Source: Balanoglossus misakiensis (taxonomy: Eukaryota; Animalia; Hemichordata). Taken from it: a stretch of DNA of 64,000 nt. The stretch is from contig CM082584.2 of NCBI GenBank assembly GCA_040954595.2, forward strand, positions 7,087,919 through 7,151,918, in the 5' to 3' direction. Below the pieces are notes generated by a model that did not search any database, was not told the origin of the DNA, and worked only from the letters and a program-made list of their open reading frames with translations. Positions within the stretch are counted from its first letter, which is position 1; each line of letters starts with the position of its first letter. The position numbers and the translations under genes were made by a program. This document shows, in pieces, positions 294 to 63,598 of this stretch.

Positions 294-941
294 GATATAC
301 TGATTTATCAGTGGAGGGTAGATGGAGATGGGTGAACTGTAGAGATTCCTCAGAATGGGATCTGGGCAACTGGGAACCAGGGCAGCCATCAAATGGAACT
401 GATGAAGACTGTGCTATCGCAAACACTAATATGAAGTGGGAAGACAGAAACTGCAATAATGAGTTGCCTTATGTTTGTAAGATCCACTTCAAAGGTAAGT
501 CCATTGAAATTTGAAATATTGACTTGATAAGTAGGACTAGTGTTGCCTAACATCAAATATATGCATATTGCTTCTCTTTGAACATATACTCAGTGTGTTT
601 TTCTACAATTTTCTACAAATATATTTTTTCAACAATTTCAGACTTTGACTGGGAAGATATCAATGTCCAGGCTGTGTATGCAGATGGCATCTCACCATAT
701 GCAGTCCATGTCACCTGGGATGTGTCCGAGTACAACTGTGATGTGGTTGGCTATCAAGTCAGATACAGACGAGATGATTGGCTGGGAGGTTATTCCTATG
801 TGTATGTGGTGGGTGGTGACAGGGATGAAGTAACTCTGATAGACTTGGAAAGTTCCACCACTTATGTGGTGTATGTGGCTGCAGATACAACCAGGCAACT
901 ATTGGCCTACGTCGGACCAGCCTATGCACAGACCCATGAAG
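294..941 (+). CDS. Unit 0 (partial): 3' exon of a C-type lectin domain plus an FN3 exon
   Basis: Exons 294-494 (GYTDLSVEGRWRWVNC...ELPYVCKIHFK) and 642-941 (DFDWEDINVQAV...AQTHE), each bounded by AG/GT. Confidence 0.88.
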
Positions 942-7400: not shown

Positions 7401-10400
7401 AAAATTCTATAAACTCTAAAGTGGCCAATTGCATGAAGTAGTGCCATGTTTCTTGTCATGTTTAGGAATTTGGATCAGCTGTGTTTTGGGTGCACTTTAC
7501 TTGTACATATAAACCCCCTAGATTAATTTGAATTATATAAGATTGTGAGATAATGTTTGTCGTTCTTTCTCTGTTTCATAGTTGTCAAGCTTCCAGAACC
7601 TATAGTAGAACCAGAAAAACCATGTGGTGGAAACTATACAACCAAAGATGGAAATGTAGTTGTAATCACATCTCCAAATTACCCAGACTTTTATGACCAC
7701 AATTCAGTAAGTTCCTTTGGCCAATGCACAAGTTAATATTTGTCTCACTAATAGAAACGCTTAATTCGTCACCATTCATTATTAGAATTACACTTACATG
7801 TACTTACTTTTTAGGTTTTAGCATTCCAAATCAGTTAACGCACACTTGACTGTAGTAAATCATGGAAACAATATTGTTCCGGTAAATATAGACCTGTACT
7901 TTCTATATCTTCTCATCAGTACTGTGAATGGTTTGTAGAAGCCTCAGCTGAAGACAAGGTGCTCATAGTACACATCCGTGACTTTTTCACCGAGCGATGG
8001 TTTGATATTCTGGACATCGGAGAAGGCAGTGAAGTCGATGAATCACTGGTACATAGTATCTCTGGTTTCCTTGCACCATTTGAATACTGGACATCATCTA
8101 CACATCAGCTGTGGCTGACATTTACAACTGATAGCACTTTCAGATATCGAGGATTCTACCTTGAAATTGAAGAAGTTGATCAAGGTAATGAATGCCATAT
8201 TTGTTCAGGATTTTTTTCATCCTATAATATAGTGTGCAAAACACAAGCTAGACAACAGTTTTTTTTTCAGATTTTGTGTATAAATGTTCCTAGGCTCACC
8301 GACATATAAATCTCCTTTATACATTTGTACTATGGTCTTCTGTACATGTACTTAACACATTCCATCCCTTCTACAGAAACAGTCGTACCAACACCAAAGC
8401 CATTACCAACAGAGGATCCACCAGAAGCCAGGCCATGTAGTGAGAACTTCACAATACCAGCCAATGGCTATCTGAATCTGACATCACCGAACTATCCTGA
8501 CGACTACGAGAATGATCTGAACTGTGTGTGGTACTATGACACAGAGACTGGGAACAGAATCAGTGTCACCTTCATCTTCTTCGACACTGAGTACTGCCAT
8601 GATTGGTTGGAAGTTGGAAATGGAGACAACCACAAGGAGTTATTGACTTCTATTGTTCGAGTGTCTGGTGATTATTCTAGTGGTCCACCTGAGTCTGTCT
8701 CATCCACTGGTAGTAGAGTGTGGGTGACATTTACATCAGACTATTCTGAGACCAGACAAGGTTTCCACATTCAGTTGAGGGAAATCACTACAGGTAAGTA
8801 TCAATTTTCCTAACACCAATCAGGCTATTCTGATACCGAAAATGATGTTCATATCTTCTGCAATTGAATTTGAAATCAAAATTAGATCATTGACTCCGAA
8901 ATTTTATGAAAAATGCTTAACCTATACTTGTGTGAATATTTGCAGACCAAGGTTATACTTTGTGTTGTTTATCTTTTCAGATCCAGATTGTGGTGATTCC
9001 CATGTTCTTCCTGGAACTGTTGGATCCTCTGTTGCCATCACATCACGTAACTACCCAAGCAATTATGACAGCAATGAACACTGTCTATGGAACATCAACA
9101 TTGATGATCAGAGTTCAGAAGATCTGCATATTTACTTCCGTGTGACCGAGTTGGTTACAGAGGCCAACTTTGATTGGTTGGAAGTTGGTTCCGGGTCAGA
9201 TGAGTTGGATTACTCCTCCTTGTTGTATCGTTTCTCTGGAAATCAAGAAGGAGAGTCTTACTTCACGGACCAGACAGATTTGTGGTCTGTGTGGACCAGT
9301 GATCTCTCAAACACTGGTAGAGGGTTCAATGTCACCTACTTCACAGGTAAATATGCAACAGTTGAATAATCATATTTGTGTGTTATGCCAATGTCAGATA
9401 AGCCAGTATTACAATGTTGAACTCTTCCTCTTTTGTATGCCTTGCCTTCTGCATATGTGCTTTCATCAAATTATCTGCTGAAAGCATAATACAATTCTCA
9501 TCATCTCTCACACAGTTGTACCATGTGGTGGACATTTGAATGCACCTGATGAAATCACATCTCCATTATTCCCAATGAACTATCCACATGGAAGTTCCTG
9601 TTCATGGAATATCCACGTCAGTGCTGGCAGTCTCATTGAAATCGTATTCCATGATTTCCATCTGGAAGATGGTTATGATTATCTCTACATCTATGAAGGG
9701 ACAAGTGAAGACACAACTGCTGTTGTGGTGAGAACAATTTTGCTGTGTGTCGGTAATAATTCAAGACTCACTGGGAAACGCCAGAGATAGTGGCAGATGA
9801 TTCGAGCAGTTTAGTCAAAATTAATCATGACAGAATAATAATTGCCTTTGTTACATCTGACAGGAGTTGACAGGAGAGGAGATGCCCAAGACTACAATCA
9901 TCAATTCAGACACTGCACTATTAGTGTTTACCTCTGACATCACAATCAGTGGAGGTGGATTCAGACTGTCATTCAATGAATACAACGAAGGTATAAACAT
10001 CATGTGTAATTCTTAGTGGTAAAAATCAGACATGAGACCTCATTCAATCTGTACTCGTTCTGAAACTCAGTTTTCATAATTTTAGAACAACTCAGTCTGT
10101 AGATGAGTATATTTATAAATGAAGCATATCTTTCACCCCTATAGTAGGCATTAATTGACATCAACATAATAAGAACCATTTATTGACTACTAATATTATT
10201 TTTCTATGCTCAGATATCTTGCCTGCCAAGCCCTGTGGTGGTAATTACGAAGCCAAATACGACTCAATCCTGGTAATCCAGTCACCCAATTACCCATCCA
10301 ACTATTATGACAGTGACCTCTGTCGCTGGAACATCACTTCACCAGAAAACACCAGAATGACGGTCACTTTCCGAGACTTTGTGACAGAAGATGGCTATGA

Positions 10401-10921
10401 TTGGGTGGATATTGGAGATGGTTTAGATGATAGTGACATAACAACAAGGGTCCTACATCATTCTGGAGAAACACTTCCATCACCCCTTATGTCCATGGAT
10501 ACAGAACTGTGGATAAGCTTCATCAGTGATGAAGATAATAATTACAAAGGATTCCTTCTGCAGATTGAAGTCATCAATGATAGTGAGTGCTTCTATAGTT
10601 ATACAAGAACGATTTGATCTTTGATACAGAATTATCCAGTTCATGTTTCCATTGTTTGTAACTAACAATAATGTGTACATTTCAGCTGAGACATCTGAAC
10701 CAAAGCCGACTGTACCACCCAGTCCTACACCAGTAACTCCCCCAGTTTGTGGTGAGCACATCATTGTCCCAGCAGTGGGAGAGATAGAGGTGATTTCTCC
10801 AAACTATCCCGATGCAAACTATGACAACAATCTGTACTGTGAATGGACAGTGAATACCACAACACCTGGTAGAAGAATTCGAGTGAATTTCCTAGATTTC
10901 AGTACAGAACGCAGGTAAGGC

Positions 10922-10967
<46 letters not shown>

Positions 10968-13900
10968 ATTTTGGGAGTTTGTGTGTCTCATGAGTACTTG
11001 TGATAATTTGATTGTAATCGTAATTTTGTTTACAGATTTGATTACCTGGAACTTGGTGATGGTATGGACTCAACAATCCGTCGATCACTTGTCAGAAGAG
11101 AGTCTGGATCAAGGTTACCACGACCACACACAACACTGACTGATCAGATGTGGTTATTATTCATCACAGATAATTCCATCACATATCCAGGCTTTAAATT
11201 GACACTGCAAGAAGAACAAGGTAGTCAGGATTTCACAATGAATAGCTCTGATATCGTATATGTGAATGTTGTTACATTGCAGTTTAACAGTTTAAGTTTT
11301 GGTTTATGGCTGGTGCCATAGTGCTGGTAGAGCTGTTATTTTCAATCATTTTTGATTTGAAACACCTGAGAGTGATATAATCTTACATTTTTGATCTCAC
11401 GATCTCCTCTTTTCATCCTGTCCAGACTGTATCAATGAAACTGTACATATTCCATCTGGTGGTGTTGCAAGAATACAATCACCATACTATCCCTATGTTT
11501 ATGATCACAATACATTCTGTGAGTGGAAGGTGACTGCAGAGGCTGGACACAACATACATGCAGTTGTCAATGAATTTGACACAGGTAAAGATTTAATGGC
11601 CACAATTTTTATTCCTGGCGACAGTTACAATTAGTTTTGATCAGATTTTAATCTTATAACAATGAAATTATGTGTGACACTTTTGAAAGATTTTTTTGTC
11701 TTTATATCACCACCACTAAATAACCCTTCTTGTCCCTTGAAACACAGAGATGGGATATGACTTTGTGGATGTTGGTTCTGGTCAAAACACTCTTGATCTG
11801 ACAACAAGAATGTTACATGTTGCTGGTTACTCTGACCCAACCACTTTCTACACTGGTACTGATCAGATTTGGATGACCTTCATATCTGACAACACTATTG
11901 CCAGGAAAGGATTTCAGATTGATCTCTATGATAGTAAGTGGGCAATAAATCACTTCTACATTGTATGTGTGCAGTTACATGAATGCTGTTATAGCTGTGC
12001 ACATCATTGAATGTTATTGTTATTTTGAATTCTAGACTTTTGATTTGATATCTATTACAAAATTTTACGAAAAAACATCAATCTATTGTATTCGCAAATG
12101 ATTGATTCTTAAATAGAGATTGTTAACTGTGTGAAAATAGTTTTATTAAATGTCAAATCACATTTTTCTTGTTCCCAGACGGTTGTCAGAGAATGGATTT
12201 CACCTCAGAACCTGGAGTCATCAATTCACCCAACTATCCCAACGACTATCCCAATCATGCTGACTGTGTGTGGACAATCAGTCTTGGAGAAAATGAGAGA
12301 ATCAAGATCACTTTTATCGATTTCAATCTTGAAACTGACTATGATAAATTGTTGATAGGAGAGGGAACTGATCCAAACTCAGATCAGTATTTGGTAAGTC
12401 TTGGTTGTTTTGGATTAAGCAGAATGTTCTGTAAAATGGTTTAATTTTGGATTTTATCAAAGTTCATTTTCTTGTACTGCCTGTGTAGAAGATATTACAG
12501 GTATGTATTTTCATCAAGTACTTATTATAAGATGTGTGAAATGGTGCTGAAATGACTTTTTAAGAATGTTGTATTTTCATCGTATTTTTGTTAATAACTG
12601 AAAGATTTTATACCATTACAGGAGCTAACAGGTCCAGACCTTCCAGAGCCAATTGTCAGTAGTGGTAATGAAATGTGGTTACGTTTCCAGACAGACTGGA
12701 GTATAGTTAACAAAGGCTTCAATCTTACTTATGAATTTGACTGTGAGTACACTATATTGTATGTTAATACCTGCAAAACATATCAAAATTTCATTGGTGT
12801 CTCACTGACGAACTTTGATAGAGATACATGCAGACTAACAGAGAGTTTTGTGATGTTTCTTTGACTGTTTACCTTCATTTTTGTTCATAGACTTTTGTCA
12901 TAAAATGTTTGTCATTCTTTTGTAGGCATTGAAGGTTATGAGAAACACTGGGTTGGTGAGGATGCAAGATGCTACAAGTTTGTCAATGATCCCAAACCCT
13001 GGAATGAAAGCAGAGAAGATTGCCTGGCGACTGAAAATGGTGATCTGGTCATCATCAACGATCAGACAGAATTGGAACTTGTCAGCAGAGAAATGAACAC
13101 TAACAAATATTGGATAGGTTACAGTGACATTTCAGTGGAGGGTAGATGGAGATGGATAGATTGCAGAGACTCCTCAGAATGGGATCTTGGCAACTGGGCC
13201 CCTGGGCAGCCATCCAATGGTACTGATGAAGACTGTGCTGTTGTTGATGCTGATAATAAATGGCAAGATGAAGTCTGTAGTGATGCTTTGCCGTATGTCT
13301 GTGAACTCAATCCAAAAGGTAGATTAAAATATACAATTAGCTTTCTAGTATGGTTGCTAGTGGTAATACATTTATTAAACGTGACTAAAAAGACACATAT
13401 ACATATATCTCTGGATTCGTTATCACTATGTTAGACTGGAAAAGTTTCCAGTATTTTCCTTCAGTTCAACTATCAGAGACACTTTTTCTAGGAATATTGA
13501 CTTTAAGTGAATTTCTTTCAGAGTTTAACTGGGATGATGCTAATGTCCAGGCTGTGTATGCAGAAGGCATCTCACCATATGCAGTCCATGTCACCTGGGA
13601 TGTGTCCGATTACAACTGTGATGTGATTGGCTATCAAGTCAGATACAGACGAGATGATTGGCTGGGAGGTTATTCCTATGTGTATGTGGTGGGTGGTGAC
13701 AGGGATGAAGTCACTCTGACAGACTTGGAAAGTTCCACCACTTATGTGGTGTATGTGGCTGCAGATACAACCAGGCAACTATTGGACTACGTCGGACCAG
13801 CCTATGCACAGACCCATGAAGGTAGTTTATATAATGTGTTTAATCAATTGTTTATAAATTAACTTGGGGTGCACTTTTCATACTATTACAGGGGATATTT

Positions 13901-16900: not shown

Positions 16901-17551
16901 ACACCAGAATGACGGTGACTTTCCGAGACTTTGTGACAGAAGATGGCTATGATTGGGTGGATATTGGAGATGGTTTAGATGATAGTGACATAACGACTAG
17001 GGTTCTTCATCATTCTGGAGAAACACTACCATCACCCCTTATGTCCATGGATACAGAACTGTGGATAAGCTTCATCAGTGATGAAGATAATAATTACAAA
17101 GGATTCCTACTGCAGATTGAAGTCATCAATGATAGTGAGTGCTTCTACAGAAGTTTCATCTTTTGAGTGGCAAAAATATTCAATTAGATTTTGAAGAAGG
17201 ATTTCTTAAAAGTCTGGGAATAAACTAAAATCTGGCAATTTATATGATACAGAATTCTCCAGTTCATGTTTCCATTGTCTGTAACTACCAATATTTTGTC
17301 CATTTCAGCTGAGACATCTGAACCAAAGCCGACTGTACCACCCAGTCCAACACCAGTAACTCCACCAGTCTGTGGTGAGCATATCATTGTCCCAGCGGTG
17401 GGAGAGATAGAGGTGATTTCTCCAAACTATCCCGATGCAAACTATGACAACAATCTGCACTGTGAATGGACAGTGAATACCACAACACCTGGTAGAAGAA
17501 TTCGAGTGAATTTCCTGGATTTCAGTACAGAACGCAGGTAAGCATAGGCGC

Positions 17552-17593
<42 letters not shown>

Positions 17594-48800: not shown

Positions 48801-51800
48801 ATCGTAAGTAGACATCTTTATTTCAGAAGCCTTACTGACATGTTTTACTTACTAGAAGTTGTGGTATCTTTTATTGTAGGAAAGTTTTACTGGCAGTTTC
48901 TTGATTGTGAATTAACAGGTGTTCTTCAAGCCAAAGACTGCCGATATGAAATTGAGCTGAAAGAGGGATCGGTGCTGTTGATCCAGTCTGAAAACTACCC
49001 CGTCTCGTACTACAACAACCACCGATGCGAATGGAACGTCACCAGCGAGTCCGGCAAACCGATGGTGGTCACTTACAGAGACTTCCAGACGGAGAGACAC
49101 CACGACTGGCTGGACATCGGTTCCGGGTTGGACAACTCGGATGTGACGACACGTCTCAGGCACACTTCCGGCGACTACCTTCCGACTCAAGTCGTGGTGA
49201 ATGCGCCCTCAATGTGGATGACATTCTATACAGATAACAGTGTTGTCTTCAGAGGGTTCCTGTTGATGATTGAAGAATATGATGGTGAGTTTGGTGAATC
49301 TTTTCTGATTTTCATCAGTGTTGCCATCCTTATTTAAACAGTGTGTATTGAACAGCTGGTGAAACCTTGAATTTGAATTGCCACATGGCCTTCACTTCAT
49401 GCATACTGTAAAACAGGAAATCAATAAAGAAAAATTGCTAAGTTCACGAGAGCCCCCCAAAAACACGAAAATAAATAGTCGTGAAAGAACAATGTGTACA
49501 ATGGAATATTTTCGGAGATAGAAGAACGCAAATATAATTTGTTGGTAAATAGTCGCCTCTGTTGATATCGCGAAAATTTCCTGTTTTTATGGTATACAGG
49601 TTTCACCTGTTCAACAGCTACAATAACTAAAATATGAAGACAGTACTTTTAACGATTTGTTAACAAATTATTCTATTTTATAACAGCTGAAACTAATCCA
49701 CCCAAGCCTGAGCCTACCACCTTGCCAACCACCACGCCAGCACCGGAAGTATGTGGCGGCCATATTGAACTCATCGGAGACGAGATCTACAACATCACCT
49801 CTCCCAACTACCCGCAGCACTATGACGACGACCTCTGGTGTGAGTGGCTGGTCAACACCACCTATGGCAAGAGGATCACCATCACGGTCGTGGACTTCAG
49901 CACTGAGTACAGACACGATTATTTGGAGTATGGCAACGGAAACGATCCCAGCGTCAGGCGCTCGAGGGTGAGACGAGTTTCTGGCGTGCAACCTGCCGTG
50001 GAGTTCACATCTGATACGGAAAGCATCTGGTTCAGATTTGTGACGGACCATTCACTAACGGACAGGGGATTTTTCATTCAACTTCAAGTCCAGGAAGGTA
50101 AGAGACACTTACAATGTACATTAATTGACTATAGTAATACTTGCATACATTAATCATCAATGAATTATCAATTGAATACTTTCCAAGTTCAGAACTGTTT
50201 GAAATAAATAATTTTATTTTTACATGAGGGATTATACAAAAAATCACACAAACAGACAATTTGACATAAGAGACAGACATAAGAGACAGTTGTTTTCTAT
50301 TATTACCGGTAGACTTTTATTTCACTGGACAGGTATCTAAGAATATGTTCATAATTCAATTCAAATAAAACAAATCGAATAACTCTATGGGTGTAACTCT
50401 GTCTGTCTCTTGTAGATTGCAATTATGAATACACAATCCAACCTGGAGGCCAGGTCACCATACAGTCACCTGGATATCCCGGTTCATATGAAAATGAGCA
50501 ATTCTGTCAGTGGATCATTAAGGCTGAAACTGGAAATCCTATCAGATTTAACATCCTGGACTTTGATACAGGTGAGAAGAGAACATAAATTGCAATTTAA
50601 CGTCGATTCTTCACCTGTCTGTGATTGCTCAGTCAGACTATGCCATTGCAACATGTGTATGGATTTTCAGCCTTTCAGATATGTTTGCTTCTGTTAAACT
50701 TTATGGTACAGTACCACTATGAGGGATATTTCTTCTTCTCTGTTTATGATGAACTTGAAATGCATCAGCCATTCAAATTGAATTTACCAAAATACAGTAA
50801 TTTTTTTTTCTATGCAAGGATATTTTTATCTCCAAATACCTGCAATTTTTTTCAGTAAACTGTACTATTTATTGGATACAAAATGTAGGTTGTGCGATCG
50901 AGTTACATATTCTTGGGTGGCATTTTGTATGAAACTGAAATGTTGCGTGTTTTTTGTCTGCCTATAAACAGAACGCTGGTATGATTATGTTGATGTCGGC
51001 ACTGGTAACTACACCGCAGTGACTTCCACCAGACTTCTGCACATCTCTGGTCCGGGCAGGAAGGATGCCTCAGAGACTCACTTCACGGGAAGTGACGTTG
51101 TCTGGGTCACTTTTACCACAGATAGAACACTCCGCAGATCGGGCTTTGAAATTCAGTTCTTTGATGGTAAGTGATTCCACACACACAAAGGTCACCGTTG
51201 TTTTGGTACTTTTCAGCTAGATGATAAAGATTCAGGTGATTTTATCATACTATGAGTGAACTTAATGCAAGTTGTTATATTTTGCAGTGGTAAAAGTTAT
51301 TATGAGTACTGTAAAACACTAAATTATTTTCGCGAGCAATAAATTTTTACCAAATACGCTAGAGCCAAAATAGCGTGAAAATGAAAAGTTGCGTAATTTT
51401 TTTTTAAGATAACGATGCAGTGAATGAAATAATAGAACGCGAAAATTAATACTCGCGGAACAGTGGGCTCTCTTGATATTGCGAAAATTTTAACTCATGA
51501 AAATAAAGTGTTTTACAGTATTTGATTGTCATCATTTGGTCATCTTTACATACATTATATATAGTGATGATATAGCCATATCTTTTTTATTATGTGATAA
51601 TATTGATGATAATTTCCACTTTACATTCTATATCATCCACTGTAAGACATCTAGATTCTATTCTTCTCTCTATGCAGATGGATGCACTGAAATGACCTTC
51701 ACCACAACACCGGGTGAGATCTACTCCCCGTTCTACCCAAGTCCGTACCCTCACAACGCTGACTGCAGATGGCTGATCTCTTTAGCAGATGCCTCTCTTA

Positions 51801-54800
51801 TCAAGGTCACTGTGGAAACGTTTGATCTGGAATTTGGATATGACAGACTCTTGGCAGTAGATGGGGCTGATCCTGAATCGGGATATTCCAGGGTACGTGG
51901 ATGTTAGAAAATTGATATAGTGAACTTCGGTCTGTGTATGTATTGGTTATCTGTGCTACAATGTAGCTGTGCTGTGTTACACACAAAATTCCCATTGTGA
52001 CATGGTACAGACCATTTACCCAAAATCTCAGCAACTTTACCAAATTAAAACTATGTGCTGTAATGTACGTATGTGATTATAATGAGGCTGTTTTTCTTCC
52101 ACAGGAACTGACTGGTGTAATTGCAAATGGCACAGAATATGTAACCCAGGGTAATGAGTTGAGACTGAAACTGGAAACTGACTGGTCAGTAACTCGTGCA
52201 GGATTCCATTTACATTTCACATCTGACTGTGAGTATTCATGATTTTAATACTGTTTATTTTGAAATCATTCCCCCTTGTCAATATATCTTATGAAGAAAG
52301 CAAGAGATTTTTGCGCAGCGATTAGAATTTATACAAATTGTCGGACAATTGAGAAAATTACATTTAACAAATGGTACATTTTGTAAATTAAATGGAATGT
52401 GTTTATTTTTGCTGGAAGAGGGAGATCATTCATGAAAGTATTGACAATGATTCAAGGTAGGGTTAATGATTTTTTTTAATTTGATGATTACAGGTCCTGA
52501 GAACTATGAGGCTGGAAACAGTGGCAAGTGCTATAGATTCATAGAAGAGGGAGCCAGCTGGCAAGATGCCAGAGAGGAGTGCATGACAACCATCAATGGT
52601 GACCTAGTGATAGTCAACGATGAGACAGAACTGGATTACTTGAGAGGTCGAATGGCTGGTGCTACCTTCTGGATTGGTATGATATAAAATTTTAAAATGA
52701 TTCTTGTGGCAGATGACTCTGAATTTACTGAATGCTGCTTTCATTCCTTTGTATATGAAATTTTCAAATTGCCCTTGCCTACAAAACATTTCCCAACCAA
52801 AACATATGCCATGAGAACTACAGTTAACGATATACTGGTAGTTACCGGTAAGTGTGGCATCTTATGACATCTAGTGAATATGTGGATTTGATTGGCTTTC
52901 AGGTCTATCCTACATTGAATGGGACAGGGATTGGCAATGGATCGATTGCTCGGCTATGACAGCATGGCAGCGAGATCAGTGGGACGGTTCCGTGCCTACA
53001 GACCCAGATGTTGTAGGATCCGAGACATGTGCTGCGTCCAATGGCAACTGGACAGGATATGAATGTTTTACCCTGCATAGCTATGTCTGTGAACTTAACG
53101 TCAAAGGTAAGTGTCTTCGCTGGATACCCAATCCAAGCATGCAGTTGGTTCAGGGGTGGCCACTCTTTCCATAAAAAGAGGACACAATTTACTTAGCTGT
53201 AACACATAAAAAATGTCTGGTATCTTAAAGAAATGTATTTCAAGTTGAGAGAGTTTACTGAAAGTATATTTGCTGGTGGTAGAGGGATAAGTATAGTGTT
53301 AGTTGTAGCAGTTATGTGAGCCCATAAGAATACAATTTTATTTTGCTTTGATAGGACAATCAATTTGATAGGAAACTTGTTATTATTTACCGTAATCAAG
53401 TAGATTCACTTCCAGTTATTGTGACTTAATGCTGAAGTTAAATATTGTTTGTTTTCTTGAGCAAATGTTAACGTTTCCATTTTCTTCTTCTCACTAGACT
53501 TTGAAGTAGATGACCTGAATCCAACCAATCTGGCAGGAGTTCCCCTCGCGCCATTTGCAATTTACATATCTTGGGAAGCACCGACTTTTGCCTGTGACAT
53601 CCTGGGGTATAACATCTCGTATAGCGTTGTGGATGAACCGTGGAGCAACCAGACAGACTACGTGGAGGGTGCCATGAACACCGATTATCGAATGTTGGAT
53701 CTCTTGGCCAATACTTCTTATTCCATCACAGTGGAATCGCATACCTTCAAAGGAGTTGTGCCTCCTGGCGTCACTATCATTGTGACCACTTTGGAGAGTA
53801 AGTGTTTCCCAATTATGTCTGCGATATGGCAAATAAATACATTTCTATACTTATTTATGCATATACCTTTGTGTGTACCATGGTTATTTTAATTCTGGGT
53901 TTTTCACCTAATTTTATTGATGCCAAAAACTTGTCATAATGCATGCAGTGTGTTTTACATTTATTGTATCAATGATGTATTCTACTTGTAATTATGTTTC
54001 TTCAGCCAAAGAAGAAGAGCCAGTAGAACCTACACCAAAACCATGCGGCGGTGACTACACAGTCAAAAATGGTACCACGTTGGAGATAGTGTCACCTGGT
54101 TACCCTGGTTATTACGCCAACAACGAGTATTGCGAGTGGATAATCAGATCATCAGATGGAATGAGATTGAAGGCAACGATCTGGGAATTCAGTACAGAAT
54201 ATGGATATGACTTTGTCGATCTGGGTAAGCACTTGGCCGTTTCCGTTGTCAGATATAACTCCCAATGCCCGTAAGATGACATAAAAATATCCTCAACTGT
54301 TTTATGATTGAAACTTATAACTCTTGACTCAGCGCAATTTTGCAGTAGTTGATAGGTCCACTATGAGATATATGTAGGCTTACAAATCAGAGAGACCCAC
54401 CCTCTAGATACATATACACTCAGTCAAGTTGCTAATTGTTTTCTCTGCAGGTAATGGTGACGTTCCGGGCGATACCGAATCCCTGCTCTCCAGATTATCA
54501 GGAGTTGTAGGTTATCGCACACACCTATCAGAGGCCGAGTATATGTGGCTGGTGTTTGACAGTGATGGTTCAGTTACAGCTCCGGGATTTGTCATTGAAT
54601 TCAACCAGGAAGCTCCAGGTATGACTGGGAAAGTTTTTCTTAGCTTAGTGGTATGGTTAAATGCAATTTTCTATATTAAACAGTGTCATTTGTCTGAAGT
54701 GGATTTTCAGGTATTTCTCTAATGTAATCCTGTGGTATTTACAAATTTGCACCCTTTTTTTACTTATCTGCGCAGTTCTTGAGGAGCCAAGTGAAAAACC

Positions 54801-57800
54801 AGACATCGGAACCACTGTAGCGCCAACTACATGCGGCGGGGATGTGACTGTGTATTCTGAACCGGTGCCAGTTATGTCGCCGAATTACCCGTCCAACTAC
54901 GACAACGGCCTGGACTGTCTGTGGAGCATCACCGCCCCGGAAGGCAGGCGTATCCTCATCACCATCGTCGATTTCGAGACCGAGGCCGGGTTCGATTGGG
55001 TCACCATGGGAGTGGGACACAACTCCTCCAACGCCAAGTCCGTCTTCAAGTACCTCAGCGGTTCTGTCTATCTTCTTCCGTTCGATGCCAACTCCAACAA
55101 GATGTGGATGACGTTCGCGGCTGATTACTCGGGCTCCAGGAGAGGTTTCAACATCACATTCCAAGAGCTGAAGAGTCTTGGTTAGTGTCAATAATAAACA
55201 GACAAATTCTTTGAGTCACTGTTTTATACATCAATACTACTATTCCATTGTTCACACTATTGATTATTTACCATATGCATAGCGAGAGCTAAAGTACGGC
55301 TCAGCTGTACTTTGCATGTTAATTAAGATTTGACTGTCATGAATCGATAAACAAATACAACACATCAAAATGTGTTACTGTATTGCTATGCAGTGATGCA
55401 TTTGAGCAACAGTTATTGTTTTAGTTTAGTGTACAAGTGGACTTGAGCAGCACAATTGATGCCAAATTGGTCACCATATGAGGACAAAGTCAGAATGGTG
55501 AAGTCTGTCTCAAGAAAATTCTTTGTTCAATTTTAACATTCTAACCACGACTATCATCTTCCCACAGACTGTGGTGGCACCTTCAGGATCCCGCCCGGTG
55601 GGAACGTTGGCATCTTCTCGCCAAACTACCCATCAGAGTACGACAACGGCGAGTTCTGCGAGTGGATCATCGAAGCGGAGTCGTCGCGCACCATTCTCGC
55701 CAACGTGCGATCCTTCGTCACCGAGGATCTGTACGACTGGGTGGACATGGGCCATGGCTTGGACTCCACCGATCAGAACACTATGATAAAACACATGTCT
55801 GGGCAGTACCCGGCTCATCAGTTCTCCACCGGTGCAAACAAAATCTGGGTGACATTCATATCCGATGGATCTGTTACCAAACAGGGTTTCTCCATTGAGT
55901 TTTCTGAAGGTATGTAAAACTCTAAGCTCTAAAATCTCATAATTATAAAAAAAATCACTAAACATTAACACTTCTGTACACAATATTCCATGTTTACAAC
56001 TACATGTTTATATAGGATGATCGTGAACTACTCAAACGAAACTTCAAGCATAAGCTGCAAACAATGCACTGAGAATTAGAGCTGTACATTTTGAACACTT
56101 AAATGATATGTATATCATTATTGAACTTCAGATGCTGCGTGTGGGGACGAATACTTGACTGACTCCAGTGGTTTCATATCCTCACCGAACTTCCCGAACA
56201 ACTATCCCAATCACATCGACTGCACCTGGATCATTGAAGTCAACAGCACCCGCAGTGTGAAAATAGAATTTGTCAGTTTTGAGACAGAAGGTGGCTATGA
56301 TTGGTTGATGATTGGTGATGGATACGATCCAAATGAAAATGAACAGCATGTAAGTCTAAATTCTTCAAGCCCTCTTCTATAATGTATTGGTATTAGTTTA
56401 GAAATTCCATTTTACAAAAACTTATTTGGTATCAACAGAATGAAAATATTATGAATTCAAAATACACAAAAGGAAAGAACTCCTGCTGTCATCATTTGCC
56501 ACCATTTGAGGTATATAAAAATTCATTAACTTATAAAGCTAGGAATTTTTTTCATGTCATAATTTACTTTCACAAAATTTCAGAGATTCAGTGGTAACGA
56601 TTTACCACCAACCATCGTCAGCGAAGGCAACGTGGTATGGTTGCAGTTTACTACAGATTATTTAGTCAGCTACCAAGGCTGGTTCCTTTTGTACGAAGAA
56701 GGTATGTTTGACAGAGCTATCACAGATATTGCGCAAGTATTGTTGTAATATACTGTAACCAATATTCTTGTAATAATGGGACGTAACGACAAAGCATTTC
56801 CTTCTACTCAAGAATAAAAATATCCATGTACATTGTGTAGACTCTGTGGTGTTTTACAGAATACCGGTACATATACTGAAGAAGCCATGTAATATACTGT
56901 CTGATGACATGCTGTGTTTAAAATGTCTTCATGCGTACTTCGCCAGATTTTCATATTAACCTCATATGTAAGATTGAGAATGAACAATATAATCAGACAA
57001 AGTGTCTATTGTGATGAAATGAGGAAAACTACATTGTAGTTCGCACAAGAATAAAGCTGAGTGGCAGATAAAAAAAGGAAGGTGGGCTAGCTCGGCAAAA
57101 ATCCCTCAGGGAGAACAATGTATATATCTCAATTACTGTCGTTTATTCAGTGCTTATAACACCGCCCCCACCAACTACCACCATTCGACCCACACCGTCA
57201 GCACCAAGTTCAACGCCATGCAGTCCTTGCGGCGGAGAATTAGAAAGTGGCGAGCCCATCATCAGCTGTCCGTACCCGGACGGCTCGTACTGTGAATGGA
57301 AGATAACGTACCCGCCGGATCAGTATGTCCACTATTACATCGTGGAGTTCGACATGCAGGCCGGTTTCGACTGGGTCTACATAGGCTACGGCTCCAATGT
57401 AACCGTGGAAACGACCCTGGAGAAGCTGTCCGGCGTCAAGGGGGATCCGGATCGCTCCGTCTACAAGATACCGGATGAGGTGGTGGCACCGTCCAACGAA
57501 GGATGGATCGTGTTTGAGAGCAGCAGAATTACAACCAGAGTGGCTCACTTTGTAATCACACACAACTACACTGATACAGGTAAATATAACAATAATGCAC
57601 TTTTAAAATCTTGATTGAGGATGATATCCAATGTAACTTGATATATTGCTTTCTCATAAATTTGAATACAAGACTGATTGAATTTTATCAGATATTAGAA
57701 AGATTATTACTATCATTTTTATGAATTATGGGAAAATAATCTTGACATACATTTTTTTCAACTGCATAACATTCAGTTATTTTCATGAAAAAGCATAATG

Positions 57801-60800
57801 TGTAGGACATAAATTTCATGTACAAATAATGAGTCATTGCTGAATCAGAAACTTGTTTTTTTTCTGTACAGCTCCACCTCAAACTCCACCACCACCAGAA
57901 GAGCATGACCTGACAGATGAAAGCGGTCAGATAACTTCTCCTGGTTGGCCGGAACCCTATGGAAATAATCTGGTATGTTTGCTTGCATCACACACCCTGC
58001 TATGTTAAGGGTCTGGCTCGTCTGATACATGTACATCACACTCTGAGCCCTTGTCCAGAAATGGCCATGTTTTGTGTACATTGTATAACACTATTATTGA
58101 GTACCTTCATTTCTGGTGAGCGTTCACTGTACATTATTATGGGGCATATTTTTTGAAGTGGAAATCCACCAGACATCCAGACCTCTATAAAACTGAAGTT
58201 TTGCTCTGTTTGCAGAATATCTTATGGGTCATCACTGTCGACAAGGGTCTCCTTGTGCGCATCTCTATCCTAAACTTCATCACAGAGGAAGGCTTCGACT
58301 TCCTGTCATTCGGATCCGGCTCGGAGAGAGGCAGTCGGCAAATAGCAAGCCTGAGTGGAAGACTGACGGGAGGAATACAGAAGAGGGATGTCTGGGCGCA
58401 GGAAGATGACTTGGTGTTCAGGAGCGATGATTTCTCCATGTGGTTAGAGTTCATCACGGATAATAGCGTCATCGACGAAGGTTTCCAGTTGGTGTACGAC
58501 ACACTGAATGCCCAAGGTACGACATACCCACGTCAGAGTTTATTTCTTATGGTTGATTGTGTGTGAATTTCAATTGGGGTTGTGATTCTTACCGAAGCTG
58601 CAAGGCCTGTATTTTTTCTTCCAAAAAAGAGGGGTCGTTTTGGTGGTAGTACAATAGTGCATTGTCACTGTCAAATCAGTTGATGTTTTGGCCAATTATG
58701 GAATCTCTACTATGCGCGCAAGAAAAGCACATACAGCACACCAATCAAAATGATTCTCTAATTGCATCTGCAGACGTGTATTGTGGCAAGATGAATCTCA
58801 CTGAACCGGAAGGAATTATCACCTCACCGAACTATCCAGAGGAATATCCAAATAACATAGACTGCCAGTGGAACATCATACTTCCTGAAGATCTTGAAGA
58901 CCAGAGAGTCAAAGTCACATTCCATCATTTTGACCTTGAGCAAAGGTAAATTTTCTAGCTGTTAAGACCCTGATTGGAATCAACAAATTTTCCAACGAGG
59001 AGATGAATTCTTGGTTGTATCTCTGTAACAACGAACAGGGACCAGTGAAGTTGCAAAGTCTGATGTATCTGTATGTTTCAATAAGCAGGCATTGCTGCTT
59101 TGTAGGCACACATGGAGTGATCATTTCAATCAAAGACAAATGCAAGAATTAAAAAACAAACAGGCAAATACATTTGATTTTAAATACATTTGAATTTAAA
59201 CTGTCCAGCTAATTCATATGTACCTTTTCCATATTTCTTTGAACAGCCAAGATTACTTGTTGTCGGGATCGGGCAATGAAATGATCCTCGGAGCGCACAC
59301 TGGCGATACCCTACCTGACCCTGTCATCAGCCCTGACCATACCATGTGGCTAAGATTCAGTAGTGACGAGTCTATTACCACAACTGGCTTCAACTTAAGC
59401 TACAGTTACACGGAGGATATACGTAAGTTGTGACGTGAAGGTGCATCGCCTGTAGGCTTGATGCAAACTGCTGTTTTGGATAAAAAAAAAATTTCCATCT
59501 CTAAATTTGTGGTGTCATTTGTATCAGCTTCTGTGATAGATGAATAGATGCTATCGAGGTTCTGAATATTACTATTATTGGTAATAACTGCTACATGTAT
59601 GATGGCACAGTTATGAATTCGAATGACTAGCTTTGTCAAGGCTATTTCTAAGGAAAATAGTTGCTACTTCAAAATAAAATTCAGGCACCACCATCATACA
59701 TGTATGCATGTCAAGTGGTTTACTATTAGAACCAAAGGTTTATTTGACTAGAATTAACATTTCTAACACAAGATTATGTTCTAAACTTCTAATGATTATT
59801 TTCAGCTGAACCAATATGCCCCACTCTGCCTCCACCAGTGAAAACTTCCCCGGCCACAACTACCAAAGACACTTTGACCGGGTCCAAAATAATACCAACC
59901 AGAGTAACCACCAAAGGAACAACCACTGAAGGAATAACCACAACAAGGAAACCTACATTCCCACCAGATGAAACCTTTGCTGCATCGATCATCATCTATG
60001 ATGGCAACACCACGTGGGTATGTGAAAAGTTACACTGTTAACTCGTGTGGATTCTTCCATTTCTTATGAAAGACCTATAACATAGTTGTTCACATCAGCT
60101 GCTTGAAAAAAGATGCTGTGGCAAGGAAAGTGAGCAGTTGATTTTCCGTAGTACCATGACAAAATATTGATAGGCTCAAATCAGGTCGTTCATCCACAAT
60201 TATCAACAGAATTAATTGATTTCTTTTTAACAATAGTTTGATGGTCCAGTGAAGGATGACTTTGCAGCTGAACTTGCTAAAGTTTTGAATGAATGGTGCG
60301 CCGTCCCTGACAACTGTCTTGTTACTGATGTTGAATTTGGGTAAGCCTCTCCTCCTCATGCATGTCCGAAAGACACATGTTTTAACTTACAGTATTGTCT
60401 TAAACTCAAAACACCCCCTATTATAAAAGGGGATATGGGTACATTGTTTGCCAGACCAAACCACACGGTCTTGTGTCAGGAGACCTCAGTACTTCCTGTA
60501 TTTCATTGTATTTCTGACCTGCATAGACTCAGAACCAAACACCAAGTGGACCATGTTTATTATGGTGAAAATGATCTAAAATGAAGTATGGGGTTTGTAA
60601 TGCCAACAAGGATGCATTTGTACCATACAGTAGATGGATATGATGATAGTACCCTTCCTTGGGCAGAAATTCATATAAATGGAATTATTACTAATAATCA
60701 ATGCTATTGTAATTAATGCTAAAATTGTGTCTTTGTTTGTAGGCCGGAAGACATAGAATTCCTTGACCTGGAAGATGTAACGGCAGGATTAGTTATGGAC

Positions 60801-63598
60801 ATCAGGGTGAAACATCCGGAAAAGGATGGTGCATACGCTCTGACGAAGGAACAGCTGGAGAAAATGTTACGGGAATACGAGTCGGAACTGGAGAACACCA
60901 TGAACTTTGACTACGAAGTGGTTGAGAGAAGTGAATATGAACCCGCCCCGCAAGACGCAGTCCTCGAAACCTGGATGATAATTTTGATTATTCTAGGCGG
61001 ACTACTGTTGCTCATCATACTGATTCTGCTCATTGTCTACTGTGTCCGAAGAGCCCGGGTGGTCCAAAAGTAAGTATTTAATCACAATTTGTGTGTGTGT
61101 GTGTGTGCTATATATGGAAGCAGTAAATGGACTTGCAATGGATTAGTACATGTATTATATCAGTGTCTCTACCTTTTAAAGCTTTCACTGTTTTATGTCT
61201 GTGGCTTTCATGATTGTCATTTTGTCTGTTGTTAAGTTTGTCGCAAAAAATTGCAATTGTGATTGTTTCTTAATAATCTACTTTCATTTTTAAACAAGTA
61301 AAACCTGTACTTGTTTGCTGTGTGCATTTCGTAACTTTAAAAATGAGTGTGCTTTCCATGGATAAAGAGTCTGGCTATTGTGTGTGATTGCAAATATGCA
61401 AGCTACAATATGTATAGTTCACTAGTCTCAAAATCCTGCGTATTTCACGTATTTCTGTCCATAATTACGCAGAAATAATGACAAACGCATACACCTGTAT
61501 GCATGCAAATTATATTGAGCATTGAAAGCTTGCAAGCAAAAAATTAGCGCACGACCTACCCTGGTACACATGACCTGGACATGCTCGTAACTGAGCTCTT
61601 ACATTGAAATGTTGCAGTTTTCATCAACAACACAACAGAAAAGTGCCGTTTTTGTGGCTGTATTTTTAGTTCCGTCTAGTCTTAAGCGTCATTGTCTAAA
61701 TGACATTGGTGTCATTTGTATATGTGCATGGTGGAAGGAAAAAGGACCAGACTATCCGGTTCATAGTGGCCATTTTGTCATGTTTTCATGTCTGGAGCCA
61801 TAATGTGAACATGGCAACATATTTCATGCAGACTTGGTATAAGAACATTGTACCACGATGTACATATTCATACCTTATTGTGTCATGATGTGATCCAGTT
61901 TGGCTACTCAGGAGGGCCATTTGTCTGCATACTTGTTATAACCCTGTACCATAACATATGCATGGATGTCAATTTTTGGTGCAATTTATTAATTTATTGA
62001 TCCAGTGAGGGCTATGTCATTGACAATGAGACGGTCAAGCAGTTAAGTCTGGTCACACCTTGTTGATCGACAATCCATCTTCAAAGTACATGCATGTACA
62101 CATGAAGACAAACCCCTACGGCCTGAGTATCCATCTGCCCTTTCTCTCATACCTCACTTCTGCACACTTAACCAATCTCTCTGTGGTTATGTCGTTGATA
62201 ATGACTTGTTCTCTGCACTTCCAGAAGCTCTTCTCTTCCTTCCTACTCACTAGACTTTGCTACTGACTGTGACTTCACAGAGGCTTACTCTGAGATGTAA
62301 GACACGCATCGATGTTCTGTCACGAGTCGTTGTCAAACGTGTTACCTGTTGCATATGAGTTCCAAGGCTAGGTTGTGTTGTCAAAAGTGTGCGCTTGAAA
62401 CCAGTGATTTCTGTTGATAAAATCACATCTCTTTCACTTGAGCAGATGGATCTGTTGGTGAATGTGGATATACATGTAACTTGTGTGTGAATAAGAGCTT
62501 GCATCATACACACTCTGTGTCGTTGGATCATGATCAGAATTGTAACATCTCACATGATCTGTGTGGCCAACTCTTGGGTTGGACGAATGTGGTTTTGTTC
62601 ATGATTTCAGTGGCCAAGTGCGTGTTTCTTTATGATTGAACTCGAACAGGATTCATACACACCAGAAATTTTTGTGAAAAAGTTTGGGTATTTTACACTT
62701 CTCAAAAGACTAAAAATTGAAATTTACACCTGCCACGGAAGGTAATGAAAAAACTCTGTTATTGCCTCATGTTGCCACAAATGTCAATTGAAGCAATCAT
62801 GGACAATTTGACCTCAAATTAAAGTGCTTGAAAACCACAGGAAAAACTGGAAAAGTCCTAAAATTTGAATAATTTCTGTTAACCCCTGTCAAAGACATTG
62901 TGTTGTACAGAGTAGGATAAATCAGTTGGCCTCATCAAGGACATGTATCTCATTAAGTATCTTAAAGATAAATCATAATTGTTGTATTTATTTATCATTA
63001 ATTGTTTCAAGGATTACTTTGACATTAAGGTACAAAGCAAAAGTACATTAATGAACATTTTTGGCAAAAATGGTACATGCAGCAATTAGTTTTGTTGTTG
63101 TTACTGTTGTTGTTGTTGTTGTTGTTGTTGTTTAGCAACATTTATAATGTAATGGCAAGCATACACTATCCAAAATGTCAAAATGTTATCAAAAAACAAT
63201 GAAACATGACCATGTCTTCCTGGCTAAAACTTGAAAACAATTGTTTTGGATGGGAAATGCCGGACAAAGTACAGATAAACTGGAAATGATCGCAGATTTC
63301 TGTGAGTTACAAGGACAAGGATTACCAGTGGAAACTTAACTGCACTATATTCACTTAATGTGTGTGAAATGTTAAAAGGCAAATGCAAATTTTACAGCGT
63401 GTGTTGTATTGTGCATATAATTACATGTGTTGCTTAACTCTTTGCTCTTAACATGCTTTATAACTGCTGCTAAGCTGCTTTTTTTTCTCTGTTTGCCTCT
63501 CCTACTCAGCGATGATGACAAAAAAAATGGTTTTCGAATTTACAGGCCATGGCTCAAAGACAGCTACCATGTTTCTGACATAGAAAAGAATAAGCCAG
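294..63598 (+). CDS. Giant multi-exon type-I membrane protein, [CUBx8-CTLD-FN3]n super-repeat, cubilin-like; 5' and 3' ends lie outside the window
   Basis: About 126 exons with canonical GT..AG boundaries and compatible phases were joined by hand. No start codon, signal peptide or stop separates the units. CUB motifs (CGG..SPNYP..Y.N...C.W; TE..YDWL; W.TF.SD.S...GF), CTLD motifs (CY.F; WIG; W.D; YVCE) and FN3 motifs (V.W; GY.V.Y; L...T.Y..YV.A) recur in a fixed order. A hydrophobic helix lies near 60970-61045. Confidence 0.9.
1082..7282 (+). CDS. Super-repeat unit 1: CUB1-8, CTLD, FN3 (16 exons, 3669 nt = 1223 aa)
   Basis: Exons: 1082-1206, 1408-1672, 1858-2274, 2387-2752, 2911-3122, 3290-3416, 3652-4020, 4171-4399, 4576-4760, 4966-5124, 5266-5451, 5672-5886, 5993-6113, CTLD 6293-6484 and 6641-6841, FN3 6983-7282. 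Confidence 0.9.
4414..4451. repeat. (GATT)n microsatellite, CUB6 intron of unit 1
   Basis: The tetranucleotide run is directly visible. Confidence 0.95.
7582..13821 (+). CDS. Super-repeat unit 2 (15 exons; CTLD in a single exon)
   Basis: Exons: 7582-7706, 7920-8184, 8377-8793, 8981-9346, 9516-9727, 9864-9990, 10214-10582, 10686-10914, 11036-11220, 11426-11584, 11748-11933, 12179-12393, 12622-12742, CTLD 12926-13318, FN3 13522-13821. Nearly identical to unit 1. Confidence 0.9.
10922..10966. repeat. (GATT)n microsatellite, CUB6 intron of unit 2
   Basis: Same intron position as in unit 1, with a longer run. Confidence 0.95.
14117..20270 (+). CDS. Super-repeat unit 3 (15 exons; CTLD in a single exon)
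   Basis: Exons: 14117-14241, 14467-14731, 14908-15324, 15478-15843, 16059-16270, 16417-16543, 16766-17134, 17309-17537, 17681-17865, 18071-18229, 18406-18591, 18841-19055, 19163-19283, CTLD 19439-19831, FN3 19971-20270. Confidence 0.9.
17552..17604. repeat. (GATT)n microsatellite, CUB6 intron of unit 3
   Basis: Same intron position; longest of the three runs, with one GTTT interruption. Confidence 0.95.
20457..28989 (+). CDS. Super-repeat unit 4 (diverged, 16 exons)
   Basis: Exons: 20457-20581, 20704-20974, 21440-21841, 22219-22569, 22819-23027, 23428-23554, 23926-24297, 24562-24808, 25253-25437, 25727-25882, 26274-26465, 26887-27101, 27326-27449, CTLD 27662-27844 and 28319-28510, FN3 28690-28989. 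Domain order and intron positions match unit 1. Confidence 0.88.
24833..24876. repeat. (CTG)n(GTT)n microsatellite, CUB6 intron of unit 4
   Basis: The trinucleotide run is directly visible. Confidence 0.95.
25537..25694. repeat. (CTGTG)n(CTGTA)n pentanucleotide microsatellite
   Basis: Visible ~160-bp run in the intron between CUB6 and CUB7 of unit 4. Confidence 0.97.
29382..37855 (+). CDS. Super-repeat unit 5 (diverged, 16 exons)
   Basis: Exons: 29382-29506, 29723-29993, 30392-30799, 31159-31530, 32125-32339, 32512-32638, 32949-33320, 33620-33881, 34186-34370, 34624-34782, 34904-35092, 35470-35684, 36025-36148, CTLD 36643-36825 and 37165-37365, FN3 37556-37855. Confidence 0.88.
37872..37896. 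repeat. (TTTG)n microsatellite
   Basis: Visible run just after the unit 5 FN3 donor. Confidence 0.85.
38104..45900 (+). CDS. Super-repeat unit 6 (diverged, 16 exons)
   Basis: Exons: 38104-38228, 38533-38800, 39031-39438, 39748-40098, 40492-40706, 40843-40969, 41347-41715, 42051-42270, 42475-42659, 42928-43089, 43291-43476, 43739-43965, 44156-44276, CTLD 44585-44767 and 45166-45369, FN3 45601-45900. Confidence 0.88.
41100..41280. mobile_element. MITE, TA-flanked (Tc1/mariner/pogo-type ends), copy 1
   Basis: Imperfect terminal inverted repeats, ta|CTGTAAAACAGGAAATTTT ... AAAATTTCCCGGTTTACAG|ta, with no ORF. Internal motifs (GAGAGCC, GATATCGCGAAAA) are shared with copies 2 and 3. Confidence 0.8.
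44960..45097. mobile_element. Possible remnant of a non-autonomous Helentron/DINE-1-like element
   Basis: A degenerate (ACAT/ACAG) microsatellite is followed by a 9-bp perfect stem, AGGTCCCAT (45056-45064) / ATGGGACCT (45084-45092), and an A-run. The 5' end was not identified. Confidence 0.35.
46168..53797 (+). CDS. Super-repeat unit 7 (diverged, 15 exons; CUB6 in a single exon)
   Basis: Exons: 46168-46292, 46552-46819, 47191-47592, 47728-48084, 48342-48556, 48677-48803, 48919-49284, 49687-50097, 50416-50571, 50972-51166, 51678-51892, 52105-52228, CTLD 52494-52676 and 52903-53106, FN3 53498-53797. Confidence 0.88.
49406..49592. mobile_element. MITE, same family, copy 2
   Basis: ta|CTGTAAAACAGGAAAT ... 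GATATCGCGAAAATTTCCTGTTTTTATGG|ta; the interior aligns with copy 1. Confidence 0.75.
51309..51518. mobile_element. MITE, related family member, copy 3
   Basis: Perfect 14-bp inverted ends including the TA flank: TACTGTAAAACACT ... AGTGTTTTACAGTA. Internal AGAGCCAAAA and TTGATATTGCGAAAATTT resemble copies 1 and 2. Confidence 0.8.
54006..59422 (+). CDS. Seven membrane-proximal CUB domains (one CUB quartet plus three divergent CUBs)
   Basis: Exons: 54006-54224 + 54451-54618; 54776-55180; 55568-55909; 56132-56349 + 56584-56701; 57151-57579; 57872-57972 + 58216-58516; 58774-58945 + 59247-59422. Each shows recognisable CUB motifs. Confidence 0.85.
59806..61069 (+). CDS. Thr/Pro-rich stalk, SEA-like juxtamembrane domain and transmembrane helix
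   Basis: Exons 59806-60017 (PEPICPTLPPPVKTSPATTTK...TTTRKPTFPPDETFAASIIIYDGNTTW), 60237-60340 (FDGPVKDDFAAELAKVLNEWCAVPDNCLVTDVEFG) and 60743-61069, which ends in WMIILIILGGLLLLIILILLIVYC followed by the basic stop-transfer segment VRRAR. The SEA-like call is an inference from the residue pattern. Confidence 0.82.
61090..61107. repeat. (GT)n microsatellite
   Basis: Visible run about 20 nt downstream of the TM-exon donor. Confidence 0.85.
63092..63132. repeat. (GTT)n microsatellite, interrupted
   Basis: The trinucleotide run is directly visible. Confidence 0.85.
63510..63598 (+). CDS. Cytoplasmic-tail exon (gene continues past the window)
   Basis: Strong polypyrimidine tract with CAG at 63507-63509. 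The phase matches the AA|GTAAGT donor at 61069/61070. The exon reads (N)DDDKKNGFRIYRPWLKDSYHVSDIEKNKP and ends at CAG|GTAAGT. Confidence 0.7.

Follow-up and report, generated by a model that had tools for sequence, protein, structure and literature searches.

Long arrays of Ca2+-binding CUB domains act as multiligand sites in cubam, where the CUBs pack into a Ca2+-dependent globular crown and amnionless places a SEA domain immediately before a single transmembrane helix; in human cubilin, Ca2+ sites are present in 13 of the 27 CUBs (PMC6283879, available part of the text). Cubilin itself combines its 27 uninterrupted CUBs with eight EGF domains and a trimerising N-terminus, and has no transmembrane helix. 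Amnionless carries cytoplasmic endocytic FxNPxF motifs. Many CUBs are also found in CSMD, a single-pass protein in which they alternate with sushi domains, and in rendezvin, a secreted CUB-only egg-coat protein without CTLD-FN3 pairs or a CUB8-CTLD-FN3 period. The cadherins PCDH15, CDH23 and CELSR1, as well as ACE2-collectrin, possess a SEA-like domain of the same fold as the one discussed below, and the cadherins among them also have long repeat ectodomains. Like the protein considered here, EBR1 is an ambulacrarian surface protein of large size whose CUB-containing repeats stand in tandem and are in part near-identical (PMC13672419, available part of the text).

According to our analysis the window, i.e. 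the whole 64,000-nucleotide stretch of Balanoglossus misakiensis DNA under study, very probably covers the 3' part of a single acorn-worm gene whose product would be a giant membrane protein with one transmembrane pass, of the form [CUB8-CTLD-FN3]n-CUB7-SEA-TM (Table 1), which shares with cubam the long arrays of putative Ca2+-binding CUBs. The exon chain came from a splice-aware dynamic-programming search trained on the window, followed by five hand edits (exon 16766-17134 merged, acceptors set at 7582 and 36643, 36571-36600 and 45468-45509 dropped). The curated plus-strand chain joins 127 exons into 9,860 aa without a stop, all 126 introns being GT-AG with a median of 225 nt, and even before the tail exons 125 exons from 294 to 61069 give 9,818 aa, again with no stop, so that the more than 9,800 aa claimed by the initial annotation hold. 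Three low-scoring candidate exons (36571-36600, 45468-45509 and 62225-62296) have no counterpart in other units or orthologues and were rejected; the last of them, a 72-nt in-frame candidate tail exon that is missing from orthologue tails, is either spurious or alternative.

Table 1. Parts of the modelled gene in the window (nucleotide positions counted from the first letter of the window)
Feature	Position	Strand	Remarks
End of unit 0 (orthologue of unit A): second half of CTLD, FN3	294..941	+	82% to P. flava unit A over 166 aa; gene continues upstream
Unit 1 (B-type): CUB x8, CTLD, FN3; 16 exons, 1,223 aa	1082..7282	+	
Unit 2 (B-type copy): 15 exons, 1,223 aa; without CTLD intron	7582..13821	+	
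Unit 3 (B-type copy): 15 exons, 1,223 aa; without CTLD intron	14117..20270	+	
Unit 4 (C-type): 16 exons, 1,217 aa	20457..28989	+	77% to P. flava unit C
Unit 5 (D-type): 16 exons, 1,236 aa	29382..37855	+	76-82% to P. flava, 70% to S. kowalevskii
Unit 6 (E-type): 16 exons, 1,217 aa	38104..45900	+	80% to P. flava, 68% to Glandiceps, 63% to Saccoglossus
Unit 7 (F-type): 15 exons, 1,216 aa; without CUB6 intron	46168..53797	+	
Terminal block of 7 CUBs; fifth without Ca2+ signature	54006..59422	+	
Pro/Thr-rich linker, ~53 aa	59806..59966	+	
Predicted SEA-like (ferredoxin-fold) juxtamembrane domain, three exons	59967..60924	+	model of P. flava orthologue
Single transmembrane helix	60972..61040	+	hydropathy; present in orthologues
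Cytoplasmic tail exon 1	63546..63598	+	matches P. flava and Glandiceps tails
Cytoplasmic tail exon 2	63782..63854	+	last tail exon expected past base 64000

With profiles built from the window's own domains, the chain reads LF-[C8LF]x7-C7-stalk-TM, that is 63 CUBs, eight CTLDs (the first partial) and eight FN3s, and the same CUB profile finds 27 CUBs in fish cubilin, which is the known number. The 63 CUBs, the seven units of about 1,220 aa, the partial unit and the seven further CUBs noticed by the initial annotation are thereby recovered, and the FN3-to-CUB1 junctions that it named (7282/7582, 20270/20457, 53797/54006) are all present in the exon model. Pfam, to which 36 of the 127 exons were submitted, confirmed the domain identities on these exons: all 20 CUB exons and all six FN3 exons scored above the curated cut-off, and Lectin_C matched seven of seven CTLD exons, five above the cut-off and two half-CTLD exons below it. 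Unit length stays within 1,216-1,236 aa and exon lengths repeat between units. Up to the neck the model consists entirely of CUB, CTLD, FN3 or short linkers with no gap above 60 aa, its ectodomain is strongly acidic (pI of the whole model 4.2), and it contains 90 N-glycosylation sequons. There is no room for sushi domains between the window CUBs and none appear in the Pfam lists of the family, while CSMD has neither CTLD-FN3 nor a CUB8 period, and identity with CSMD was rejected.

RefSeq presents the corresponding hemichordate loci as several models (at least three in P. flava, two in Glandiceps, four in Saccoglossus), which might be taken to mean two or more tandem genes, for secreted CUB proteins and one anchored member. 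The loci concerned are those of XP_070564553-555 (P. flava), XP_077864846-850 (S. kowalevskii) and XP_077981826-827 (G. talaboti). One P. flava model, XP_070564554, indeed begins at a unit junction with a hydrophobic N-terminus, and among the eight unit-junction introns of the window three have an in-frame ATG and three an AATAAA. These introns are, however, all phase 1 and, at 140-392 nt, like the others in length; their donor and acceptor sites are normal, and a stop exon is absent. Moreover, Glandiceps and Saccoglossus models read through the very Z-A junction at which XP_070564554 starts, and for this reason its 'signal peptide' was rejected as a true start. The other RefSeq breaks differ between species and lie mostly in the middle of domains; the end peptide of XP_070564554 resembles an off-frame reading of the window at 31294-31545, which points to an indel in unit D of the P. 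flava assembly. Jointly the models span all nine junction types (X-Y, Y-Z, Z-A, A-B, B-C, C-D, D-E, E-F and F-terminal, with every type crossed by one model or more, and B-C and C-D by those of P. flava alone), and the echinoderm orthologues are single, computationally predicted models. Tandem genes appear improbable to us on these grounds, and the computed models support the initial annotation in its view of one very large type I membrane protein with the N-terminus upstream, a single transcript being what we infer from them.

The best match of the window's FN3 profile is a Saccoglossus 'cubilin-like' fragment, and searches with this fragment returned nine hemichordate models together with sea star, sea urchin and crinoid proteins; the next matches, cubilins and mannose-receptor-like proteins, aligned with no more than a quarter to a half of it. 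At 55% identity or more, P. flava models account for 117 of the 127 exons, with no minus-strand match; the remaining ten exons fall below this filter, and when units 4-7 and the terminal block are aligned globally only two internal gaps appear, one of 17 aa and one of 13 aa. Identity to the window units is 72-82% in P. flava, 60-68% in Glandiceps and 55-70% in Saccoglossus, so that the gene is of enteropneust type and probably closest to that of Ptychodera. A unit tree, built without terminal blocks and without fragments under 300 aa, groups the units by position and not by species (window unit 0 with A, 1-3 with B, 4 with C, 5 with D, 6 with E, 7 with F), and both the set of units and their order are shared by Ptychodera, Glandiceps and Saccoglossus, whose loci RefSeq divides into 'cubilin-like' models. 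Upstream of A, P. flava and Glandiceps have two complete units (Y, Z) and the last part of another (X), while Saccoglossus has Z; the consecutive P. flava models XP_070564555/554/553 total 10,985 aa and 71 CUBs. Probably, then, at least three further units precede the window, which would bring the B. misakiensis gene to 87 CUBs or more and some 13,400 aa if it keeps Y, Z and A; the true N-terminus is not reached in any hemichordate model among the matches. In S. kowalevskii there are two D-type units 83% identical to one another as well as B-like partial duplicates (P0001, P0063), and its matches lack a C-type unit, XP_077864848 lying outside the set compared.

Echinoderm receptors, among them S. 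purpuratus LOC579551, A. rubens LOC117291426 and P. miniata LOC119722655, share with the acorn-worm protein the spare cysteines of the CTLD-FN3 pair, the CUB clade, the SEA-like neck and the transmembrane helix, and by these features would be orthologues or close paralogues of the window gene, uncharacterised so far. They unite CUB blocks, CTLD-FN3 pairs, neck and helix in single models of 3.2-4.2 kaa, several of which start with a signal-like peptide followed immediately by CUB5. Their order, CUB5-(CTLD-FN3)3-6-CUB5-(CTLD-FN3)4-5-CUB-SEA-TM with 11 CUBs in full models, is lectin-rich, whereas the acorn-worm members are CUB-rich, with an inferred length of about 11-14 kaa and degenerate sugar sites. 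The features that define the family (a CTLD-FN3 pair with two spare cysteines, one-disulfide CUBs, a SEA-like neck and a transmembrane helix) were all found, and in the matches obtained by word-based searches of proteins up to 5,000 aa the family appears confined to hemichordates and echinoderms. These searches were run by length (175-2,000, 911-2,900 and 2,901-5,000 aa), so a longer full-length annotated orthologue could not appear among them; a search at any length with the neck-TM exon gave two matches at E<=1e-10, both fragment models.

No description of this family was found in the open full-text literature, with sources partly available and subscription papers and most proteomics and single-cell supplements, which may name an echinoderm orthologue, outside its scope. 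Within the same limits no characterised protein shares the architecture, in agreement with the initial annotation, which had not recognised one with the CUB8-CTLD-FN3 period. A P. miniata protein with CTLD, CUB and FN3, PMI_003522, which may belong to the family, is reported from one peptide at 41% probability (PMC5460417, available part). LOC579551 is absent from two supplements of PMC12768270, and the available part of PMC4729200 holds nothing relevant to the family.

The signature Tyr-Glu-Asp-Asp (Y-E-D-D) marks Ca2+-binding CUBs, whose ligand binding is low-affinity, multipoint and pH-sensitive (PMC10850435, available part). With columns placed by alignment with cubilin CUB5-8, it is present in 62 of the 63 window CUBs, which argues for the multivalent protein binding suggested by the initial annotation; elsewhere we count it in 11 of 27 CUBs of hedgehog cubilin, 22 of 25 of a bryozoan cubilin-like protein and 7-9 of 10-11 in echinoderm orthologues. 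Just two cysteines occur in 55 of the 63 window CUBs. In a tree from which the near-duplicate window units 2 and 3 were left out, 82 CUBs of the family cluster in a single clade (FastTree local support 0.98) that excludes the 51 CUBs taken from two cubilins; this separation and the missing second disulfide make the likeness to cubam one by analogy. Unlike cubilin, the window protein has 63 or more CUBs in blocks of eight split by CTLD-FN3, and its own membrane anchor, kept in orthologues. Identity with cubilin was rejected on three features, the uninterrupted 27 CUBs, the lack of a transmembrane helix and the CUB clade. No EGF domains occur in the Pfam lists of family matches, the N-terminus of the window protein lying upstream.

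In the same tree CUB1 is sister to CUB5 and CUB2 to CUB6 (support 0.92 and 0.93), so the octet is probably a duplicated tetrad. Pro/Thr linkers of 13-35 aa stand ahead of CUB1, CUB2 and CUB6. CUB2 of units 1, 2, 3, 6 and 7 has a third cysteine, with no obvious partner, directly ahead of the first Asp of the Ca2+ site (e.g. 1858-2274, 39031-39438, 47191-47592).

Units 1-3 are 97.8-98.2% identical in protein, as compared with 42-52% for other unit pairs. An assembly artefact was ruled out by dS of 0.11-0.15, dN/dS of 0.07 and the divergence of introns, the first 13 of which are 73-96% identical among the three units with many differences in length. By these sequence measures they are real, recent and selected copies of unit B, of which P. 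flava has one. Units 1 and 4-7 have a phase-1 CTLD intron (cf. 6485-6640) that is exactly missing at 12926-13318 in unit 2 and at 19439-19831 in unit 3, which would place exact intron losses within the recent triplication; unit 7 lacks the phase-2 CUB6 intron (exon 49687-50097). The FN3 exons of A and B (642-941 and 6983-7282) are identical at 287 of 300 nt, compared with 150 of 201 nt for the preceding CTLD exons, and the A and B FN3s of P. flava are likewise near-identical to one another, which suggests exon-limited homogenisation, separately in each species. The array may be read as a detailed record of how a super-repeat evolved: a tetrad was duplicated, units were gained in particular lineages, introns were lost exactly and homogenisation stayed limited to exons.

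Such a triplicated unit brings to mind a receptor for gamete recognition on the egg surface, of the EBR1 kind, in which units 1-3 would be the species-specific repeat, since EBR1 also has near-identical, species-specific and negatively charged CUB-TSP1 repeats (PMC13672419, available part), and units 1-3 are triplicated relative to P. flava. The triplicated unit, however, has a clear P. flava orthologue at 80% identity, while the species-specific repeats of EBR1 have no significant identity between species (PMC13672419, available part). EBR1 is moreover ADAMTS-like, with CUB-TSP1 repeats and a reprolysin domain, none of which is present in the modelled region, and TSP1 is absent from the Pfam lists of the orthologues. 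Identity with EBR1 was rejected on these domains and on the orthology of the window repeats between species. A role in gamete recognition, one of the uses proposed by the initial annotation, is disfavoured by unit-by-unit conservation across three genera together with the low dN/dS, and we consider it very improbable.

Each complete CTLD-FN3 pair has one spare cysteine in either domain, in 162 of 162 CTLDs and 162 of 162 FN3s from 24 proteins, five protein pairs being near-duplicates, so that these rows are not independent. A two-domain model of a Saccoglossus pair (pLDDT 94.9, pTM 0.85) is consistent with a fixed orientation of the two domains, and we suggest, from cysteine pattern and model together, that CTLD-FN3 is probably a new, disulfide-locked module; among the Foldseek matches listed for this model there are only single CTLDs, at TMq of about 0.5. 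The CTLD fold as such is borne out by Lectin_C and Foldseek. Sugar-binding CRDs carry EPN or QPD plus WND at Ca2+ site 2. The canonical site, searched for as EPN/QPD/EPD/QPN plus xND, is present in none of 24 hemichordate CTLDs (the seven full window CTLDs read QPS in five cases, EPS in one and VPT in one) and in 24 of 75 echinoderm CTLDs. The absence from the 24 hemichordate CTLDs leaves the glycan binding that the initial annotation considered for the CTLDs poorly supported.

From the 'stalk, TM helix and tail' of the initial annotation, helix and tail stand, with one further tail exon (Table 1) and a tail that runs beyond the window end; the stalk gives way to a Pro/Thr linker plus a juxtamembrane neck predicted to fold as a SEA-like domain. 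The neck was modelled on the P. flava orthologue, whose terminal block is 73% identical, with pLDDT of 92.9 and an order of strands and helices that fits SEA; Foldseek matched it to ACE2 chains (E 1.9e-4, TM 0.69), presumably to their collectrin-like neck, and Pfam gave a sub-threshold Collectrin match. VIA-align found CELSR1 (Z 11.6, rmsd 2.5, 98 aligned), PCDH15 MAD12 (Z 11.1, 2.5, 99), CDH23 MAD28 (Z 8.5) and IA-2 (Z 7.1). Neck identity to the SEA-like proteins is 9-15%, and the window protein has neither their cadherin repeats nor a peptidase domain. Amnionless is not among the structural matches listed for the neck by Foldseek and VIA-align, and absence there does not exclude it.

Thirteen family tails were scanned, the window tail being incomplete, and none has [FY]xNPx[YF] or NPxY; a partial motif, YSF[DM]NP or YYVNP, occurs in four of them. 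This missing endocytic motif and the cadherin-type SEA matches keep close a second reading, in which the protein is a structural tether or surface-coat scaffold, for example a long apical link between microvilli or cilia or an anchor of a cuticle or mucus coat, whose CUB beads would bind one another or coat proteins through Ca2+ and whose SEA neck would bear load as in tip-link cadherins. The top VIA-align matches are adhesion proteins, unit order is constant across genera with variable unit number, as expected for a length-tuned spacer, Pro/Thr linkers stand at fixed places and sequons are plentiful. A shared SEA fold nonetheless says nothing on function, the near-complete ligand-binding signature over 63 domains fits capture at least equally, and the echinoderm orthologues obtain their length from CTLD-FN3 pairs, about a third of which (24 of 75) have canonical sugar motifs. 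We regard a tether as unlikely, though it is the most serious of the rival readings.

Near the C-terminus nine of the 13 tails carry [DE]PxYA, namely all eight of sea-star and sea-urchin orthologues and that of a urchin paralogue (P0012, P0013, P0014, P0017, P0018, P0021, P0044, P0054, P0074). The motif recalls EPIYA-type SH2 docking sites. Combined with the CTLD and CUB content and the more intact sugar sites of echinoderms, it could indicate a pattern receptor of innate immunity or signalling, with microbes or opsonised particles as ligands and a signalling tail. [DE]PxYA is, however, missing from the two complete hemichordate tails as well as the two crinoid tails, the hemichordate CTLDs lack the canonical site, and the matches point to one slowly evolving locus rather than an expanded family; for the acorn-worm protein this role seems to us quite improbable.

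Taking the above together, we tentatively prefer, at somewhat less than an even chance, a self-anchored, Ca2+-dependent multivalent protein-capture receptor on an epithelial surface; granted one gene, capture together with uptake comes nearer to an even chance. Each CUB would bind Ca2+ and with its Glu and Asp grip, weakly, a basic side chain of the ligand, and 70-90 such weak sites would give avid and broad capture with release at low pH or low Ca2+. The octet, two ancient tetrads broken by Pro/Thr linkers, may form a bead, and the putatively disulfide-locked CTLD-FN3 may space the beads, in acorn worms as a strut more than a sugar sensor. A filament, as proposed by the initial annotation, is one possible shape, the CUBs of cubam being packed into a globular crown. 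The two weakest steps are that the SEA neck and the helix would fulfil in one chain the role that amnionless has for cubilin, and that an absorptive or filtering surface, e.g. of the gut or the excretory complex, would hold the cargo and probably also take it up. A conserved cubilin-amnionless signature is described for the bilaterian hindgut (PMC12768270, available part), which makes such uptake cells plausible in these animals and is silent on the window gene. Against capture it may be said that a high Y-E-D-D fraction is not unique, as the bryozoan protein demonstrates, and against uptake that the scanned tails have no canonical endocytic motif.

It is conceivable, with a chance that we would put well short of even, that a single-chain receptor of about 11,000-14,000 or more residues with 70-95 Ca2+-binding CUB sites constitutes a cubam-like capture device that evolved independently of cubilin from an ambulacrarian ancestor and was rebuilt as a lectin array in echinoderms and as a CUB array in acorn worms, its reach tuned by whole 1,220-residue units. 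If true, it would rank with the largest known membrane receptors of modular build (megalin has about 4,600 aa and ADGRV1 about 6,300 aa), and with so many sites we know of no more CUB-rich protein. Every domain kind and the RefSeq fragments were known before; the hemichordate super-repeat, its size and the history of its units are added by the window, and one family would contain two opposite designs in hemichordates and echinoderms. Fragments named 'cubilin-like' in RefSeq can pass for genuine cubilin in comparative studies of how gut and kidney evolved, and the single-model S. purpuratus orthologue makes the function testable in a standard embryo.

Several smaller observations concern introns and relatives of the gene. 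A (TGTAC)30 array occupies 25543-25695, ATTG microsatellites lie in the same intron of units 1-3 (4414-4451, 10922-10966, 17552-17604), and an intronic element of about 190 nt is shared, at 68% identity, by 41098-41268 and 51307-51491. The Lytechinus paralogue (P0021, P0060, P0065) is arranged as (CTLD-FN3)11-CUB3-neck-TM, with an arginine run inside the SEA-like domain as a possible furin site. XP_006816183 of S. kowalevskii (P0073), a Thr-rich membrane protein of 505 aa, has the same SEA-like neck (E 4.4e-4) with two cysteines retained, and its tail carries a full YDNPAY motif.
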